Assembly (NCBI GenBank): GCA_963793425.1
Contig: CAWCAG010000009.1
Coordinates: forward strand, 640,001 to 704,000
Source: an uncultured cyanobacterium
Lineage (GTDB): Bacteria > Cyanobacteriota > Cyanobacteriia > Cyanobacteriales > CAWCAG01
Reading direction: 5' to 3'
DNA length: 64,000 nt
How positions within the stretch are numbered: position 1 is the first letter of the stretch; each line of letters begins with the position of its first letter. The notes below the pieces were generated by a model. That model searched no databases, had not been told where the DNA came from, and was given only the letters and a program-made list of their open reading frames with translations. A program made the translations under genes and the position numbers. This document shows positions 329-64,000 of the stretch, piece after piece.

Positions 329-3028
329 TCAATCAACAATTTCTGACACCGGAAATCTCTCCATTAATTGGATAGCCCTACGAGCATTTTTCTTTAAATC
401 TCCGGATATGTCAGGAATATGAGGAATTTGCGAGAGAAAATCGACGGTTCGTCGTAAAAGCCTAACAATATCTCCTTCATCAAGACTGGTATGTTCGCAA
501 AGTTCAACCCATTCAATGCCCAAAGCCCATTGTTCGACAATGCCAATTAGTTTATATTCCCTCCAAACCGGGAGAGCAACTTTATAACGATTTTGGAGTT
601 TATTTAACTCTTGCCCCAAGGGACGCAAGTTATCCAAAACTTCAATTACTTGTTGAGGAGGATTATATTTCACCCAACTATCAGGACGGGGAGGTTCGCT
701 GATTAAAGCACAAGCTGCTGCGGCTAAATGTTGAGGTTGCAATGGTTCACATTCCCCTGATGTTAAAGCCAAAGCTAACCACAACTCATTATCTCCTCGA
801 ATGGCTGCTGCCGCTTTACCAAGAGGAGTTGGCTTGTAACCTTTGAGGGCATCGAAAGCTTGGAGAACTTCAATTAAGTTGAGAAATTCTTGCCAATGGT
901 GGGTTTGATGTTCCCGATATTTGGTTTGTCGGTCACGTATTTCTTCTTTGAGGCTAAGGCGGCGGTTGTGGCGTTTGATGATGGTTCCTGGACGGCCCCA
1001 ATTGCTGAGAGAATGATTATCAATTTGGGTTTGGGTGGCTACCATTTTTTCCTTTTGAGCCAACACTTCCGGGGCTTCAGGAATTTCTGGTAAGGGTGAG
1101 GGAGAGGGTGAAGGACTCCCTGCCCCTACTTTCTGGGCTAGTAATTGGGCGATTTCTGCACTAACTTCATCTCCCGGACAAGATTTGCCTAATTTGATGC
1201 CCAGGTTATCGGGAGGAATCAACCATTCTATTTGAGAAGAAGGTAAAGATTGTTTGTCTATGGCAATTACATCGACGTTACTAACTATATACCAGTAGTT
1301 ATCTATGCCCAAACAAACTAGGTAAGGTGCTTGACCTCCGCCTATAGCTTTAGCGATTAAAATTGCTGTTACAGGCTTGGTTACTTTGAGGTGTTTGCCT
1401 TTTAAATAAACTATTTGTCCTGGTTCTAATTTGGAGGCAACGAAGGTAACTCCTTTTAAGCGTTCTACCTCTGCTTGCTGTTTTAGGGTTTTGAGGAGGC
1501 GACGTTCTTCTTTGAGTCTGGCTTTGAGTTTTTCATAGCTGCTAATTAAATTAACTTCTACCGGGGCCAACTCCACATCCAACCTCGCTAATTCTGTGGC
1601 TATATCTGCGATCGCCTTTTGTTGTGGGGTTAACCTCAAAGTGGCAATATATTGGGCAAAACTTCTTTCTAAGAGGTTTTGTACTTGGTCTATGGTGTGG
1701 GTTTGGAGTAGATTCAAAACCATGCCATAGGTAGGAGTAAACTGGCTTACCAACGGATCTGCTTTTCTGGTGGCTAAGTAGGCTGATTCTTTAGCCCCTT
1801 CAAAGGGGGTTTGACAAGTCACCACATAACCGACATTATCCATACCCCTACGTCCTGCCCTACCAGCCATTTGCAGGAATTCAGAAGCTGTTAAGAGGCG
1901 ATGCCCCCTATCAGTTCGCTTAGAAATAGAAGAAATTACAGTGGTGCGGGCAGGCATATTAATCCCCGCAGCGAGGGTTTCTGTGGCGAAGACAGCCTTA
2001 ACTAAGCCGGCTTGGAACAATTCCTCAACTAATCCTTTCCAAGCAGGTAGAATGCCCGCATGGTGGGCGGCAATTCCTCGGTATAAAGCATCTACTTGAC
2101 CTTTTCTGCCTGCATCAGGGTTTTTGTTGAGAAACTCGTCAATGCGAACTTTGAGGCGAGAGGCTTCTTCTTGGTTAACCAAACTCACTTCACGAAAATC
2201 TTCTACGGAGCGATCGCAACCTCGACGGCTGAAGATAAAATAAATGGCTGGGAGCATTTCCCGTTTGTAAAGCTGGGAAACTATTTGGAAAACACTAGGA
2301 CAGTCCTCTCTTCTTAAGCGTTTTTGTCCTCCTTTCTTCTTCGATTTGAGGCGAGGGTTCAAAGACTTTTGTTGTTTATCTAACAGATCAAACAAGCCCT
2401 TTTGGCTACTGAAATAAAATTTGAGGGGTACGGGGCGAAAGTCGGAGTTAATTAGTTCTGTGGGGCCATGAACTTGAGCAATCCATTCCGTTAATTCTGC
2501 TCCATTAGCAATGGTAGCCGACAAAGCCACTAATTGAATTTCTGGAGGACAATAAATAATTGACTCTTCCCAAACTGTACCCCGTTGGCGGTCATTCATG
2601 TAGTGGCATTCATCCAAAACCACCGCTTCGACATCTTCTAAGGAAGTACCAACTTGGCCAATGGGGGTTCCATAAAGCATATTACGGAAAATTTCTGTGG
2701 TCATCACTAAAACTGATGCTTCCCGGTTGCTGGAAACATCCCCAGTCAACAAACCAACTTCCCTTTCCCCAAATTGTTTCCTAAAGTCCCTTAATTTTTG
2801 ATTAGAAAGAGCTTTGAGAGGAGTTGTGTAGAGAACTCGTTTACCGCTAGACAAAGCGCGATAGATTGCATACTCTCCAATCAAAGTTTTCCCGGAACCA
2901 GTGGGGGCGCAAACTACCACAGACTTATTCTCATTGAGAGCTGTGATCGCTCTTTTTTGAAAGTCATCTAGTTCAAAAGGAAATAGTGTTTTTAGATCAA
3001 GGGCTGAGTTATTTGCAGAAGAATTCAC
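329..3028 (-). CDS. Ski2/HelY-like DEAD/DEAH-box RNA helicase with C-terminal DSHCT-type domain
   Basis: APTGSGKT, DECH, SAT, ATETLAAGINMPA and QMAGRAGRRG motifs; C-terminal DEGDIVR. Confidence 0.93.
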   Translation of the reverse strand: MNSSANNSALDLKTLFPFELDDFQKRAITALNENKSVVVCAPTGSGKTLIGEYAIYRALSSGKRVLYTTPLKALSNQKLRDFRKQFGEREVGLLTGDVSSNREASVLVMTTEIFRNMLYGTPIGQVGTSLEDVEAVVLDECHYMNDRQRGTVWEESIIYCPPEIQLVALSATIANGAELTEWIAQVHGPTELINSDFRPVPLKFYFSSQKGLFDLLDKQQKSLNPRLKSKKKGGQKRLRREDCPSVFQIVSQLYKREMLPAIYFIFSRRGCDRSVEDFREVSLVNQEEASRLKVRIDEFLNKNPDAGRKGQVDALYRGIAAHHAGILPAWKGLVEELFQAGLVKAVFATETLAAGINMPARTTVISSISKRTDRGHRLLTASEFLQMAGRAGRRGMDNVGYVVTCQTPFEGAKESAYLATRKADPLVSQFTPTYGMVLNLLQTHTIDQVQNLLERSFAQYIATLRLTPQQKAIADIATELARLDVELAPVEVNLISSYEKLKARLKEERRLLKTLKQQAEVERLKGVTFVASKLEPGQIVYLKGKHLKVTKPVTAILIAKAIGGGQAPYLVCLGIDNYWYIVSNVDVIAIDKQSLPSSQIEWLIPPDNLGIKLGKSCPGDEVSAEIAQLLAQKVGAGSPSPSPSPLPEIPEAPEVLAQKEKMVATQTQIDNHSLSNWGRPGTIIKRHNRRLSLKEEIRDRQTKYREHQTHHWQEFLNLIEVLQAFDALKGYKPTPLGKAAAAIRGDNELWLALALTSGECEPLQPQHLAAAACALISEPPRPDSWVKYNPPQQVIEVLDNLRPLGQELNKLQNRYKVALPVWREYKLIGIVEQWALGIEWVELCEHTSLDEGDIVRLLRRTVDFLSQIPHIPDISGDLKKNARRAIQLMERFPVSEIVD

Positions 3029-3129
3029 ACGGAGTCTTTACCATTCTTAATTAATATTTGACGAGAGCAAAAAGTTTTGCTTTAATTCCAGTCTATTTGA
3101 ATGATACCTATTTCAGGGGTGTAATTGGT

Positions 3130-3804
3130 ATGTTATCTAAATCAGAGTCATTAGTAATTAGGGAATCTTCCCTCAAATTTGGTCGTAGCTATAGAGTCCT
3201 AACAGCTTTGCTAGGGGGGATTCCTCTATTTTTGGGCATGAGGCTACGGAGCTTAGTTTATCAACTAGTTTTTGATAAAATTGGCCAAGGGGTACAAGTT
3301 GAAGTAAATGTTAACTTTACCCGTACTTATTTAATTAGTTTAGGCAATCGGGCTTACATTCGGTCGGGAGCAAATTTAGAAGTTTTAGCAGAAAATAGTG
3401 CCATCGTTATTGGAGAAAAAGCCACAATCGAACGAGGCGCTGATATTCGTGCTTATGCAGGAGGTAGTATTAGGATTGGCGATCGCACGTTTATCGGCCC
3501 CTATACTTGTCTTAATGGCCGTAATGTCAGGATTGGTCAAGATTGTTTAATTGGTCATCATTGCGGTATTTTCGCCGGCAATCATATTTTTAAGGATGCC
3601 CAACGCAAAATTAATCAACAAGGCTCTTCTTTCCAAGGTATTGTTATTGAAGATGATTGTTGGTTAGGTAGCGGAGTAAAGATTTTAGATGGAGTTACCG
3701 TTGGTAAAGGAAGTGTAATTGGTGCAGGTACTGTGGTGACGAAAAATGTTGCTCCTTATTCTGTGGCTGTAGGAGTTCCTGCCGAGGTTGTAGCTCATCG
3801 CTAG
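3130..3804 (+). CDS. Hexapeptide-repeat acyltransferase (maltose/galactoside O-acetyltransferase-like)
   Basis: Left-handed beta-helix repeats, IEDDCWLG...VIGAGTVVTK...VGVPA; ATG at 3130 preferred over TTG at 3058. Confidence 0.88.
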   Translation: MLSKSESLVIRESSLKFGRSYRVLTALLGGIPLFLGMRLRSLVYQLVFDKIGQGVQVEVNVNFTRTYLISLGNRAYIRSGANLEVLAENSAIVIGEKATIERGADIRAYAGGSIRIGDRTFIGPYTCLNGRNVRIGQDCLIGHHCGIFAGNHIFKDAQRKINQQGSSFQGIVIEDDCWLGSGVKILDGVTVGKGSVIGAGTVVTKNVAPYSVAVGVPAEVVAHR

Positions 3805-4210: not shown

Positions 4211-6067
4211 ATGAGAATTTTATTAATTGATAATGATAAAACTTTAATTAACTTACTTCAAAGAATTCTTACAGAACAAAATTATGTTATTGATGCAGTT
4301 ACTGACGGAGAACAAGGTTGGATATATGGTTCAACCTATAGTTATGATCTAATTATTCTAGATTGGTCTTTACCCAAACTAGATGGAGTGAGTTTGTGTA
4401 AGCGCTTTCGTGCTTCTGATTACGACACCCCTATTCTCCTCTTAACAGCATCTAATAGTAGTCAAGATAAGGTTCAAGGGCTTGATGCAGGGGCAGATGA
4501 TTGTCTATGTAAACCTTTTGATCTCGAAGAATTCTCAGCACGTATTCGTGCTTTGTTGCGTCGTCTAAATGCTGATTTCCTTTCTGTATTGGGTTGGGGA
4601 GATTTGAAACTAGATCCTTGTCGTGGTGAGGTTACTTATAAAGACCAATTGTTGTCTTTAACGGCCAAAGAGTATGGGTTATTGGAATTATTTTTACGTC
4701 ACCCCCAAGAAGTTTTAAGCATTGAAGAGATTATTGAAAGTTTGTGGTCTTCAACAGAATACCCGGCTGAGGCGACAGTTCGTTCTCACCTTAGACACTT
4801 ACGAAAAAAACTCAGACTAGCTGGCTTAGTAGAAAATCCGATTACAACGTTACCAGGACGAGGATATTGCTTAAAATATTTGCCAAGAGGGAGTGATGTT
4901 GATGAGGCCGTCTCGTCAACGCAGCTAGAAAACCGAAAGAGTAGGCGATCTAAGCATTTAGCAACCCTGACTACGACTTGGGAAAGATATCAGCATAAGA
5001 GTAGTCAACAGTTAGTCAGTTTAGATGCCGCTATAAAAGCTTTGCAACAAGGCAATCTTGATAAAAGCGCTCACCTAAATGCAATTGTAACAGCTCATAG
5101 TTTAGCAGGGAATTTGGAACTATTTGGTTTTGAGCGAGGTTGCCAATTGACTCAAGAAATAGAACAACTACTACAAAGGGATTTGGGTAGAGATTCTCAG
5201 CAAATTGTTCAGCTACAAACTACCTTCAATACTTTACGTCAAGAGTTAGTTACTGAAGATAATATTTCAGAGCAAATATCTAACCAACTAGAAGCAAATT
5301 CTCCTTTGTTATTGATTATTGATAACAATACAACATTTACTGAAAACTTAAGCCAAGAAGCAACTAGTTTGGGGATCAGAACTGCTATTGCCCCAACAAC
5401 GGAATTGGCTAAAAATTATCTAGAAGGAGAGCTTCCTGATGTAGTTCTTTTGCAAATTTCTTTTGAAGAATCAACATCTAATTCTAGATTGCGATGGGAA
5501 CGTTTATCTTTGATTGCTGAATTTAAGTTAATGGAACCGTCAATACCTGTAATTGTAATTGCTGATTGTGATCACCCTGAAGATCGTTTGCAAATAGTGC
5601 GACATGGGGGTTCTTTTTTCTTAAAACAACCCATAACTGCTGCCCAAACCCTCTCTTTTTGTCAGCAAGTTTTAGAGCATTCTTGCCAAAATAAAAAAGT
5701 AATGATTGTTGATAGTGATGTAGAGTTACTCCGAGCTTTGCCTTCTATGTTACAACCTTGGGGTTTCAAATTAACCACCTTAGATGATCCTCGGCAGTTT
5801 TGGGATGTTATTCAATCGGTACTTCCTGATATTTTGGTACTAGAGATAGAAATGCCTCACTTCAGCGGTATTGAATTGTGTAAAACTCTACGAACTTATG
5901 CCTATTGGCGTAGGACACCTATTTTATTCCTCACAGCCCATACAGATATAGCAATGCAAAATTTGGTTTTTTCTAGTGGTGGTGATGATTTTATCACTAA
6001 ACCCATTGACGGCAAAAAATTAGCAGAACGTATTCTTAATCGTTTTGAGAGAATACGGGAAAGTTAA
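4211..6067 (+). CDS. Multi-domain response regulator (REC-wHTH-Hpt-REC-REC)
   Basis: OmpR-type REC and winged helix (LTAKEYGLLELF, GRGY), Hpt (AHSLAGNL), two C-terminal receiver-like domains. Confidence 0.9.
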   Translation: MRILLIDNDKTLINLLQRILTEQNYVIDAVTDGEQGWIYGSTYSYDLIILDWSLPKLDGVSLCKRFRASDYDTPILLLTASNSSQDKVQGLDAGADDCLCKPFDLEEFSARIRALLRRLNADFLSVLGWGDLKLDPCRGEVTYKDQLLSLTAKEYGLLELFLRHPQEVLSIEEIIESLWSSTEYPAEATVRSHLRHLRKKLRLAGLVENPITTLPGRGYCLKYLPRGSDVDEAVSSTQLENRKSRRSKHLATLTTTWERYQHKSSQQLVSLDAAIKALQQGNLDKSAHLNAIVTAHSLAGNLELFGFERGCQLTQEIEQLLQRDLGRDSQQIVQLQTTFNTLRQELVTEDNISEQISNQLEANSPLLLIIDNNTTFTENLSQEATSLGIRTAIAPTTELAKNYLEGELPDVVLLQISFEESTSNSRLRWERLSLIAEFKLMEPSIPVIVIADCDHPEDRLQIVRHGGSFFLKQPITAAQTLSFCQQVLEHSCQNKKVMIVDSDVELLRALPSMLQPWGFKLTTLDDPRQFWDVIQSVLPDILVLEIEMPHFSGIELCKTLRTYAYWRRTPILFLTAHTDIAMQNLVFSSGGDDFITKPIDGKKLAERILNRFERIRES

Positions 6068-61965: not shown

Positions 61966-62733
61966 ATGGCGATAATCGCTTTGAAAGCTTGGTATATTGA
62001 AGACTACGAACCAATTAAACAGGTAATTCAACGACCTCATGATTTGCGCTTGAGTAGGAATAGCTTGCTTAAATCAGGGCTACGGGCAGACTTTTTGAAC
62101 GATACTCAAGAAGTGCGAAATTCTGATTGGTTTGAGCGCTATTTAGAAGGAGAAGAGATAGAATTTTATGTTGAAGGTAGTGGCGGCTATGCTATTTCTA
62201 ATATTGATCTTATTTCCCAAGAAATCTATTTTACTAAACAAGACCTCAGCGCTACTTTAGAACCAATTATTTATTTTAGCTGCCAAAAAGAATACCCTGA
62301 TTCTAGCACTATGCTGCGAGAAAACTTGATTGCTGCCTTAGATGATTTTAATGAGCGATCGCGCCTTCCCCTTACCTTAGAAGAGTCTCTATTTCCTACA
62401 GAAGGCCCTGTACGCTTAAGTAGTCGTCAATTACGAAAAATTCGTAAAAGCTTACTTTTTGTTGCTGACGGAACCATTGTTACAAAAGGGGGAGAAGACA
62501 AGCAACAATTAATTCCTAGCCCTAATGTTTGTGTAGAAATTGGTTATGCAATTCATAGTAAAAAATCTGGTCAAGTTCTTTTAACTCGACAGAAACGCCC
62601 AGAATTCTCTGGTAATTATCCTTTTGATTTACCTAATCGCCAACAATTAACTTTCCAAGATAGTCAAGAATTAAGCAAAACTTTACCAACTACTTTAGAA
62701 AGTTTGCTGAAAAGATTTAATTTATTTAACTAA
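61966..62733 (+). CDS. Conserved cyanobacterial hypothetical protein with C-terminal NDT/TIR-like motif
   Basis: RBS present; KIRKSLLFVADGT...PSPNVCVEIGYA. Confidence 0.75.
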   Translation: MAIIALKAWYIEDYEPIKQVIQRPHDLRLSRNSLLKSGLRADFLNDTQEVRNSDWFERYLEGEEIEFYVEGSGGYAISNIDLISQEIYFTKQDLSATLEPIIYFSCQKEYPDSSTMLRENLIAALDDFNERSRLPLTLEESLFPTEGPVRLSSRQLRKIRKSLLFVADGTIVTKGGEDKQQLIPSPNVCVEIGYAIHSKKSGQVLLTRQKRPEFSGNYPFDLPNRQQLTFQDSQELSKTLPTTLESLLKRFNLFN

Positions 62734-62965: not shown

Positions 62966-63190
62966 TTACTGATCATTGATAGTAATATACTGAAGTTGAT
63001 TAGCAACTCTCTCTAACCATGCTTGCACAGCCGGAAAGAAGTTTAATTCAAAACCGCCTTCTTCGGCCACATGGGTATAAGCGAATAAAGAAATATCAGC
63101 GATAGTGTAGCGATTTTCGACAAAAAACTCTTGCTTTTGTAAATGATTTTCCATCACCTTCAAAGCAGCATAACCTAATGCTTGCTTTTA
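62966..63190 (-). pseudogene. Glutathione S-transferase, C-terminal fragment (5' truncated)
   Basis: GYAALKVMENHL...YTIADISLFAYTHVAEEGGF.L..FPAVQAWL.RV; no N-terminal domain upstream. Confidence 0.82.
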
Positions 63191-63350: not shown

Positions 63351-63413
63351 TTTCCTCATACTCTTGACAGTTTTGTAGTATTTGTGTAATATAAAACTGT
63401 AGTGATGAGGAAA
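63351..63413 (+). promoter_or_regulatory. Sigma70-type promoter of the tRNA array inside a long imperfect palindrome
   Basis: TTGACA 63364-63369, 17-nt spacer, TAATAT 63387-63392; arms TTTCCTCAT/ATGAGGAAA and ACAGTTTT/AAAACTGT; repeated TGTA(G/A)T motifs. Confidence 0.7.
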
Positions 63414-63424
63414 TTTATAAAACT

Positions 63425-63436
63425 GCACCTTGAAAA
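63425..63436 (+). promoter_or_regulatory. boxA-like antitermination element GCACCTTGAAAA
   Basis: Resembles cyanobacterial rrn boxA (GAACCTTGAAAA); lies between the promoter and the first tRNA. Confidence 0.55.
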
Positions 63437-63526
63437 TTAAATATATAATACATCTTTTCAATTTTGATGCACTAATACAACAGTTGCGGGGATGCAGTAT
63501 CTTGCATTCCTATCAACACAGTAAAA

Positions 63527-63598
63527 GCATCGGTAGCCAAGTAGCAAGGCGTTGGTCTGCAAAACCAATCATCGTGGGTGCAATTCCCACCCGATGCT
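63527..63598 (+). tRNA. tRNA-Cys(GCA)
   Basis: Acceptor GCATCGG/CCGATGC, anticodon arm TTGGT-CTGCAAA-ACCAA, T arm GTGGG-TGCAATT-CCCAC, U73. Confidence 0.9.
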
Positions 63599-63620
63599 TT
63601 TACTGTGTTACATAAAATTT

Positions 63621-63705
63621 GGGTCGGCTCGCCTATAAGGGTGGGTAGCGGTCTGTAAAACCGTCACCTAGAGTGTTGTAGGTGCGAATCCTACCCGACC
63701 CACCA
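63621..63705 (+). tRNA. tRNA-Tyr(GTA), atypical D arm, CCA encoded
   Basis: GGGTCGG/CCGACCC, GCGGT-CTGTAAA-ACCGT, long variable region, GTAGG-TGCGAAT-CCTAC, ACCA. Confidence 0.85.
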
Positions 63706-63712
63706 ATGTTAA

Positions 63713-63799
63713 GGAGAGGTGGCCGAGTGGCTTAAGGCGCGGTCTTGGAAAGGCTGATCGGAGTTTACACCGACGGGGGTTCAAATCCCTCCCTCTCCG
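63713..63799 (+). tRNA. tRNA-Ser(GGA)
   Basis: GGAGAGG/CCTCTCC, CGGTC-TTGGAAA-GGCTG, long variable arm, GGGGG-TTCAAAT-CCCTC, G73. Confidence 0.9.
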
Positions 63800-63844
63800 C
63801 CTATTTGTTGGAGTAGTCCATCGAAACCGCAGCATTGCATTATA

Positions 63845-63875
63845 GCTCTGTGGTGTCACTGGCAACATCTCGCAC
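63845..63875 (+). pseudogene. Probable truncated tRNA 5' half
   Basis: GCTCTG-TG-GTGT-CACTGGCA-ACAT resembles acceptor strand plus D arm (compare the Thr gene); no anticodon or T arm follows. Confidence 0.35.
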
Positions 63876-63877
63876 AT

Positions 63878-63955
63878 CGCAGGGATGGAGCAACAGTTGG
63901 CTCACCAGGCTCATGCCCTGGAAATCTGTGAGTGCAATTCTCACCCCTGCTACCA
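63878..63955 (+). tRNA. tRNA-Met(CAT), initiator-like but atypical, CCA encoded
   Basis: CGCAGGG/CCCTGCT with C1:U72 mismatch, CCAGG-CTCATGC-CCTGG, GTGAG-TGCAATT-CTCAC, ACCA. Confidence 0.85.
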
Positions 63956-63962
63956 ATACTTT

Positions 63963-64000
63963 GCAGGTATAATGTCAATTAGCAACATGAGGCTTTTGTA
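63963..64000 (+). tRNA. tRNA, probably Thr(TGT), cut by the window edge
   Basis: GCAGGTA-TA-ATGT...ACAT-G-AGGCT-TT-TGT-A. Confidence 0.6.

Follow-up and report, generated by a model that had tools for sequence, protein, structure and literature searches.

The closest described counterparts of the locus analysed here are the long arrays of tRNA genes (L-arrays) of cyanobacteria, among them the trn operon of Anabaena (Nostoc) sp. PCC 7120. The accessible text of PMC8421152 presents L-arrays as the only known inducible second set of tRNAs in bacteria: they are silent, are switched on by inhibitors of translation by way of -10 box repeats, aid survival and lie in neighbourhoods enriched in RNA-processing genes. 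The repressor of the trn operon is TrcR, whose site in the trn promoter, TGTAGTAT, overlaps the -10 box, and the conserved auto-operator of trcR is ATACTACACTTGTATTAC (PMC10272220, accessible text). Our locus lies at the end of a 64-kb stretch of an uncultured cyanobacterial genome (the window, G000:C9:640001-704000) and was followed into the contig beyond it in segment L001 (C9:703001-712000; window position = L001 position + 63000). The unit measures about 4.95 kb between its promoter and its terminator, the window end being the promoter-proximal part, and contains seven spare tRNA genes, one tRNA gene with an insert, one tRNA fragment, four protein genes and a 206 nt structured RNA. This RNA joins copies of two 23S rRNA elements, the sarcin-ricin loop (SRL) and the L11/thiostrepton (GTPase-associated, GAC) domain, and is called SRL+GAC RNA below. 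The tRNA cluster is a new, shortened representative of the known class. We consider it likely that the unit as a whole is a reduced member of this horizontally spread class and serves as a kit against translational stress.

The initial annotation had likened the tRNA genes at the window end to the Anabaena trn operon, an assignment that our analysis bears out. We place the unit in the L-array class because its promoter carries the TrcR octamer, its tRNAs resemble those of arrays and they are redundant in the genome. The promoter upstream of tRNA-Cys is the best plus-strand promoter-like site in L001 150-5450, with a match at 10 of 12 positions. Between its -35 and -10 boxes sits TGTAGTAT (window position 63374), which agrees in every letter with the site that TrcR has in the Anabaena trn promoter; TGTAATAT (63385) then overlaps the TAATAT -10 box and TGTAGTGA lies at about 63398, an arrangement that we read as a putative operator. 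The octamer alone occurs 100 times on both strands of the 5.28-Mb genome, and the tandem pattern, which was composed after the site had been seen, has its single genomic occurrence at the unit promoter. A TrcR-type box stands at most 260 nt upstream in 10 of the 13 arrays that start with tRNA-Asp, many of these contigs being near-identical. The genome also holds exactly one copy of the 18 nt auto-operator ATACTACACTTGTATTAC, in a promoter-like context ahead of an open reading frame (ORF) of 111 amino acids at C5:612248-612583; we regard this ORF as a TrcR candidate, its N-terminal stretch reading as ribbon-helix-helix-like.

The Cys, Met, Thr, Gly and Arg tRNAs of the cluster share an identity of 0.78-0.89 with tRNAs of their own isoacceptor from other arrays, compared with 0.63-0.72 for their best housekeeping match, which is often another isoacceptor. 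For Tyr and Ser this crude identity measure gives no isoacceptor-specific best match; an alignment of the Tyr gene does relate it to the Tyr genes of arrays. Each anticodon in the cluster is found again elsewhere among the 50 tRNAs of the genome (ARAGORN), the cluster genes being supernumerary and bringing redundancy but no new anticodon. Their order, Cys..Tyr..Ser..Met-Thr-Gly..Arg-[RNA], is a collinear subset of the long-array order. The unit thus has in common with the Anabaena trn operon and L-arrays its co-oriented spare tRNAs and the TGTAGTAT box in the -10 region (PMC8421152 and PMC10272220, accessible text), homologous collinear tRNAs, some of which encode CCA, and the linkage to RNA-processing genes described for L-arrays in the accessible text of PMC8421152. 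Unlike the trn operon, which has 26 tRNAs and is plasmid-borne, the unit has seven tRNAs and remnants, four embedded protein genes and the SRL+GAC RNA, and no HNH gene was found in it. It is probably chromosomal, as the initial annotation had supposed, because its contig of 1.14 Mb bears both rRNA operons.

Within the 64-kb window, ARAGORN calls four plus-strand tRNA genes, all at the window end. The earlier description of five tightly packed, co-oriented tRNAs leaving the window is confirmed by ARAGORN and Rfam for these four; the fifth, a Thr-UGU-like gene that crosses the window end by 36 nt, has no ARAGORN call and at 28.8 bits is just below the gathering score of the Rfam tRNA model (29 bits). 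It aligns over its length with the 'second Thr' of other arrays and is 0.82-0.83 identical to array Thr tRNAs. From 63526 to 36 nt past the window end the five genes are spaced by 7-76 nt, all on the plus strand. The unusual features first seen in the window are also real: T loops TGCAATT in Cys and Met and TGCGAAT in Tyr, to which TGCAAAT in the Thr-like gene can be added; encoded CCA in Tyr and Met; and a weak D stem in Tyr, of three pairs with one G-U. More tRNAs do follow downstream, namely Gly-TCC, Arg-TCT, Lys-UUU with an insert and a Ser-like 3' fragment. Beyond the window the array continues, yet it is short and interrupted by protein genes. The flanks of tRNA-Cys are complementary (ACAGTAAAA ... 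TTTTACTGT; window 63516-63609) and would add about nine acceptor-stem pairs in the precursor, which would be an unusual RNase P substrate. Matches to tmRNA and YrlA at L001 4905-5083 are far below threshold and are accounted for by the tRNA 3' fragment and the Lys tRNA.

The odd T loops go together with a second change. G18 and U55 form a tertiary pair in the tRNA elbow; in the Cys, Met and Thr-like tRNAs, U55 is replaced by G (TTC to TGC) together with a change of the D-loop GG to AG, relative to array homologues. At other loci, the D-loop GG is present in 533 of 535 tRNAs with a TTC loop and in none of 13 tRNAs with a TGC loop (six distinct sequences). One of the latter is the Glu-CUC gene of Nostoc 7120 pCC7120delta, which shares the A18/G55 elbow with this unit. 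Loops with G55 occur in four of the seven tRNAs here versus 13 of 596 in other arrays. Judged from these sequence comparisons, A18/G55 is an alternative form of the elbow in which one change compensates for the other, and its origin or spread among array tRNAs has happened repeatedly. The variant might let these tRNAs evade an enzyme or toxin that recognizes the elbow, or might change their contacts with the ribosome. Because U55 to G goes with GG to AG, G55 being accompanied by an A in place of the first D-loop G, we reject the idea that the odd T loops are signs of decay. As to the suggestion that gene order and decay state may be new, the order is a subset of the common array order, and real decay lies elsewhere, in the fragment, the insert and the smaller number of genes.

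The non-tRNA component of the unit was recognized as a stretch between tRNA-Arg and the ligase gene that matches positions 1080-1157 (of 2925) of the LSU_rRNA_bacteria model with 61 bits. By BLAST, AGUACGAGAGGA in this RNA is identical to the SRL 12-mer of the genome's own 23S rRNA (23S positions 2592-2603), and 43 nt downstream of it 35 of 37 positions match the helix 43/44 core (23S positions 1091-1127). The RNA is not collinear with 23S rRNA. It is a composite and not a gene fragment, because the two pieces stand in reverse order and the approximately 1.5 kb between them is absent. The structure that we examined, guided by the rRNA folds, has P1 as its closing stem and further comprises a stem P2, the hairpin of the SRL, one variable hairpin, a GCG/CGC stem, a stem like H42, a GAC-closing stem and helices 43 and 44. 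In an alignment of 46 distinct copies (A2), 94.2% of cells are paired versus 33-47% when partners are slid, and 17 pairs show compensatory changes versus 6-11; 0 of 500 shuffles reach the observed values. Covariation supports the fold. The fold that RNAalifold proposes by itself, in which the invariant SRL strand pairs with the invariant GAC strand, was rejected, as it has no covariation and conflicts with the rRNA folds. Identity as close as that of the SRL 12-mer and the helix 43/44 core could also point to a chance or recombinational 23S fragment or an assembly artefact, with no role. This explanation is hardly credible, being contradicted by conservation and covariation: two segments about 1.5 kb apart in 23S rRNA are joined in the opposite order with 43 nt between them, new covarying helices (P1, the hairpin and the H42-like stem) surround them, and the RNA is present at full length in 47 of 151 genomes sampled from the order as well as in 46 metagenome stretches. 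Moreover, 94-98% of the words sampled from the locus are contained in four DNA sequencing runs from a single study, one of these runs possibly being the source of this DNA.

The breadth of this distribution became apparent with a covariance model of the RNA (R1). A strict pattern, the exact join of the SRL and GAC pieces, finds the RNA in four of 401 genomes of the phylum and in the 46 metagenome stretches, a count that is too low because R1 finds far more. Counted from the match table, the 47 genomes of the order, our own included, carry full-length matches of 103-266 bits, and eight genomes show two copies. The other 62 genomes with a listed match show just R1 positions of about 97-179 at approximately 60-69 bits, like the two 23S genes of our genome. 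In a class-level sample, R1 finds the full-length RNA in nine of 151 genomes, seven of them in other orders. Among plasmid records, one, Kovacikia minuta pA, covers at least 80% of the RNA; the other 638 matches cover the GAC-like part of the query alone and are taken for 23S rRNA genes. In Kovacikia minuta CCNUW1 the RNA lies at about 1063.9 kb of NZ_CP083583.1. A phage origin was considered and set aside, since two exact patterns found no copy in viral contigs and the TrcR candidate has no counterpart in phage records. R1 found no copy on the whole of Nostoc 7120 pCC7120delta, where tRNA-Arg-TCT directly abuts tRNA-Ala-TGC at the place in which other arrays hold the RNA. It may have gone unnoticed because the Anabaena model operon is without it. 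Three GC-rich metagenome contigs (L014, L020 and L027) carry the RNA with no tRNAs nearby, one of them with a ThiF-family gene downstream, and may derive from non-cyanobacterial phyla.

Over the RNA, no Rfam 15 family other than LSU rRNA reaches its gathering threshold, and we found no description of an rRNA mimic in tRNA arrays in a literature check that covered text outside figures and subscription journals. The main text of PMC8421152 does not contain '23S', and the accessible part of its supplement has it just in the name of a methyltransferase. Because neither an Rfam 15 family nor a published description was found, the SRL+GAC RNA is probably an undescribed RNA family, and the unit a new L-array variant.

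Several findings weigh against our reading of the unit as a functional member of the class. Its seven tRNAs compare with 26-43 genes in published L-arrays, and array features are spread thinly, with seven tRNAs at or near threshold, the tRNA with the T-loop insert and the fragment distributed over 4.6 kb among four ORFs. The HNH endonuclease gene that lies upstream of L-arrays in most species was not found in L001 by tblastn with the HNH protein of a Microcoleus array. The TrcR candidate has no curated family match and no homologue in phage records. A sequencing-run search returned no RNA runs holding the stretch; four DNA runs of one sediment study hold it. The RNA element is dispensable, because a genome of the same genus (G415) has just 23S-type R1 matches and no full-length copy. 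Finally, the invariance of the SRL and of CCUUUAAAGAGUG in A2 was partly forced by the search pattern (the SRL 12-mer is intact in 14 of 14 copies found with R1 instead), and the equivalents of A1067 and A1095, mapped by eye, vary among the RNA copies. These residues contact thiostrepton and factors in the ribosome, and their variation weakens a strict reading of the RNA as a factor or thiopeptide decoy.

Signs of decay add to these points, and taken together they might describe a functionless remnant of a horizontally acquired L-array whose odd tRNAs are pseudogenes. Such a history would fit the low tRNA number (seven versus more than 20 in other arrays), the Ser-like 3' fragment, the Lys tRNA with its 32 nt T loop, the sub-threshold Thr-like gene, the truncated glutathione S-transferase (GST) gene adjoining the left border and the lack of the RNA in G415. 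We nevertheless regard it as distinctly unlikely, since none of the four ORFs is disrupted and all match their families strongly, the promoter, its operator and the terminator are intact, the RNA scores 214 bits with R1 and has all helices, and G55 occurs with A18 in Cys, Met and Thr, a combination that recurs in other arrays, including the Nostoc 7120 Glu-CUC gene.

ARAGORN finds tRNAs in 41 of 52 loci of the SRL+GAC RNA, all on the strand of the RNA; three loci are duplicates in the RNA region. The usual order is ...Thr Gly Gly Val Arg [RNA] Arg Ala Ala His Ser..., and in further genome loci the RNA lies among co-oriented tRNAs in 11 of 11. Protein genes near it recur as well: a NADAR relative downstream in 16 of the 52 loci, a ligase relative downstream in seven and a protease relative upstream in six (our locus included in all three counts), and a second Macro type upstream in eight. 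Where tRNAs are missing, the ORFs scanned at 11 loci place Tpt1/KptA (four loci), an AAA ATPase of approximately 400 amino acids (six loci), NADAR, NUDIX or a methyltransferase after the RNA on the same strand, and one of these loci has another RNA ligase. At two of 13 loci without a nearby tRNA, tandem TGTAGTAT boxes, in the form TGTAGTATAA-TGTAGTATAA or close to it, immediately precede the start of the RNA, and in four more a TGTATTAT-like sequence, judged by eye, lies upstream of it; the background rate of the box is 0.05 per 100 nt. The RNA goes with a TrcR-type promoter and with NAD+/ADP-ribose-linked RNA-repair genes, whether tRNAs are present or not. In the arrays L025/L030, L044, L067-L069 and L071, the tRNA just upstream of the RNA has the anticodon CTA (ARAGORN 'Pyl'); it is 0.89 identical to the Arg-TCT of this unit and may be an amber suppressor derived from tRNA-Arg.

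These surroundings bear on whether the RNA acts in cis. It could be a 5' leader that senses a protein binding to, or damage at, the copied rRNA sites and controls the repair genes downstream (NADAR, ligase, Tpt1 and AAA). Such a role would suit the tRNA-less loci, in which the RNA directly follows a promoter with TrcR-like boxes and precedes same-strand Tpt1, AAA and NADAR genes, and those arrays in which NADAR or the ligase often comes directly after it. In many arrays, however, the next gene is a tRNA, such as Arg-TCT or Ala, about 100 nt downstream, and a terminal stem with covariation closes the RNA, in the manner of free-standing RNAs. On balance we consider a cis-acting leader unlikely. 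A bait or decoy is a possibility that we hold tentatively, and something else would account for the rest.

The two rRNA elements have a common setting in the ribosome, where the SRL and the thiostrepton loop together make up the GTPase-associated centre. Both are targets of attack, and an RNase newly reported is said to cleave the SRL. The SRL is also cleaved by VapC toxins (PMC5175351, accessible text), and the toxin Tre23 ADP-ribosylates helix 44 of the other rRNA domain (PMC8661411). In the mechanism that we propose, a TrcR-type repressor would keep the unit off, and when translation is impaired it would be transcribed from a single promoter, to provide a kit that serves the translation machinery; the anatomy suggests co-transcription as one unit. 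The kit would supply spare tRNAs, four of them with a G55 loop; the RNA ligase with its tRNA-binding domain would reseal cut RNA; and the Macro and NADAR enzymes would handle ADP-ribose adducts or by-products. The 206 nt RNA would display the SRL and the L11/thiostrepton domain, two elements of the ribosomal GTPase centre, and so might bind, or be attacked by, whatever binds or attacks those sites on the ribosome, be it toxins, ADP-ribosyltransferases, ribosomal proteins or factors.

We extend this proposal tentatively to the wider distribution of the RNA: many cyanobacteria may respond to an attack on translation with a free-standing GTPase-centre replica, made together with altered-elbow tRNAs, that would act off the ribosome as a bait or as a small ribonucleoprotein. 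As a bait, the replica would absorb or report RNases that cleave the SRL and ADP-ribosyltransferases that modify rRNA, and NADAR, Macro, Tpt1 and the ligase would reset it. As a ribonucleoprotein, it would engage translational GTPases together with uL11, uL10 and a bL12 paralogue. If true, either role would mean a novel way in which an RNA protects or controls the ribosome. The locus bears on how L-arrays help under translational stress: the arrays often include a conserved RNA, not a tRNA, in which the two rRNA elements that translational GTPases contact and ribotoxins hit are replicated, this RNA travels with NAD+/ADP-ribose-linked repair genes even without tRNAs, and some array tRNAs have the apparently compensated A18/G55 elbow. 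This leads to the testable idea that the response may defend or repair the factor-binding site of the ribosome as well as tRNAs.

Other systems share single traits with the unit. The L10 and L1/L11 leaders of ribosomal-protein operons are likewise RNAs that copy a ribosomal-protein binding site of 23S rRNA. Unlike these leaders, the SRL+GAC RNA has no ribosomal-protein genes downstream, combines copies of two rRNA sites that lie far apart, has its own terminal stem and occurs in tRNA arrays or ahead of RNA-repair genes. The large RNAs GOLLD and ROOL, which phages and prophages carry beside tRNA genes, are similar as ornate non-coding RNAs among tRNA genes, whereas the SRL+GAC RNA is far smaller and recognizably derived from rRNA; neither family has an Rfam match in the window or L001. 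KptA/Tpt1, Macro, NADAR, Nudix and RNA ligases form a known NAD+/ADP-ribose-linked RNA repair network (PMC9503650, accessible text), whose domains recur here (Macro, NADAR and ligase) and at the other loci of the RNA (Tpt1, NADAR, NUDIX and ligase). The word 'rRNA' does not occur in the main text of that report, which thus describes no rRNA-like RNA partner, whereas here such genes share a unit with tRNAs and the mimic.

In Rsr/Y-RNA-RtcB operons, a structured non-coding RNA with tRNA-like modules is tied to an RNA ligase and to stress that affects translation. The unit resembles them in the link between a structured RNA and an RNA ligase, with the difference that rRNA and not tRNA is imitated. 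These Rsr (Ro60) operons are cited in the accessible text of PMC8421152 (ref. 85). The match of the YrlA family (RF02553) to L001 4950-5083 reaches 24.3 bits against a gathering score of 69 and comes from the tRNA-like pieces, and the unit has no Ro60 gene. A second locus of the genome, G000:C5:852700-855500 (L063 about 700-3501), has a TTGACA promoter with tandem TrcR-type boxes, TGTAGTAC-tcg-TGTAGTAT, and contains a 66-amino-acid ORF as well as tRNA-like or YrlA-like modules, three or four in number, with AAGCTTACATAC in front of each. Among these modules is a 73 nt tRNA-like gene with anticodon CAA and an A18/G55 elbow. After the modules come a bL12 paralogue (PF00542, 78.7 bits) and a protein of more than 431 amino acids that contains a vWA domain. 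The locus may be a Ro60/Y-RNA-like system of the same regulon; bL12 belongs to the same ribosomal region as the SRL and GAC.

The features of the unit are collected in the table. All four ORFs have good family scores; NADAR and Macro are also above the cut-offs of NCBIfam TIGR02464 and NF001664, and the translation of the ligase gene contains the KxDG lysine motif (KLDGTNGG) of a predicted nucleotidyltransferase. In a search of solved structures the one match was between the N-terminal, tRNA-binding part of the ligase and the B2 domain of PheT. PADLOC assigned no system membership: NADAR reaches 58 bits against the candidate family PDC-M42C, and the AAA proteins have weak TRIP13 and IetA matches.

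Table. Positions of the elements of the tRNA-SRL+GAC RNA unit (window coordinates unless L001 is given)
Feature	Position	Strand	Basis and remarks
Promoter TTGACA-N17-TAATAT with TrcR-type boxes	63364..63405 (promoter 63364-63392)	+	Promoter scan, pattern search
tRNA-Cys-GCA	63526..63599	+	ARAGORN; Rfam tRNA 63.4 bits; T loop UGCAAUU; AG replaces GG in D loop
tRNA-Tyr-GTA	63621..63705	+	ARAGORN; Rfam tRNA 30.7 bits; T loop UGCGAAU; CCA encoded
tRNA-Ser-GGA	63713..63801	+	ARAGORN; Rfam tRNA 53.5 bits; canonical T loop
tRNA-Met-CAT, initiator-like	63878..63955	+	ARAGORN; Rfam 38.4 bits; anticodon loop CUCAUGC; T loop UGCAAUU; CCA encoded
Thr-UGU-like tRNA	63963..64000 in window; whole gene L001 963-1036	+	Rfam 28.8 bits; T loop UGCAAAU
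Macro gene	L001 1098-1616	+	PF01661, 166.3 bits
Clan AA aspartyl-protease gene	L001 1718-2161	+	
tRNA-Gly-TCC	L001 2196-2266	+	ARAGORN/Rfam
tRNA-Arg-TCT	L001 2295-2367	+	ARAGORN/Rfam
SRL+GAC RNA	L001 2449-2654 (SRL 2480-2491; replica of helices 42-44 2535-2611)	+	
tRNA-binding OB domain fused to ATP-dependent RNA ligase	L001 2803-4092	+	PF09414, 47.2 bits (cut-off 27)
NADAR gene	L001 4206-4685	+	PF08719, 146.8 bits
Ser-like tRNA 3' fragment	L001 about 4905-4999	+	
tRNA-Lys-UUU with 32 nt T loop (insert)	L001 5042-5140	+	
Predicted terminator, long hairpin followed by U8	L001 5254-5312	+	Fold z-score -4.44

Minor observations concern the Macro start and the borders of the unit. A seven-codon mini-ORF with a strong Shine-Dalgarno sequence (L001 1067-1090, 67-90 nt past the window end) stops 7 nt ahead of the start codon of the Macro gene, a codon that lacks its own Shine-Dalgarno sequence; the mini-ORF may serve as a leader peptide or in translational coupling. 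Just upstream of the unit, a 255-amino-acid ORF (window 61966-62733, plus strand) has no Pfam, NCBIfam or PADLOC family match, and a 65-amino-acid ORF (window 62966-63163, minus strand) corresponds to the C-terminal part of a GST, whose gene looks truncated at the left border of the unit. Synteny of this gene with the Microcoleus array was considered and rejected, identity being merely 19% over 47 residues. Past the unit and outside it, the opposite strand (L001 5352-8999, minus) encodes a CHAT-domain protein that also has a cadherin-like domain, together with a large protein, rich in repeats, that by eye resembles filamentous haemagglutinin.

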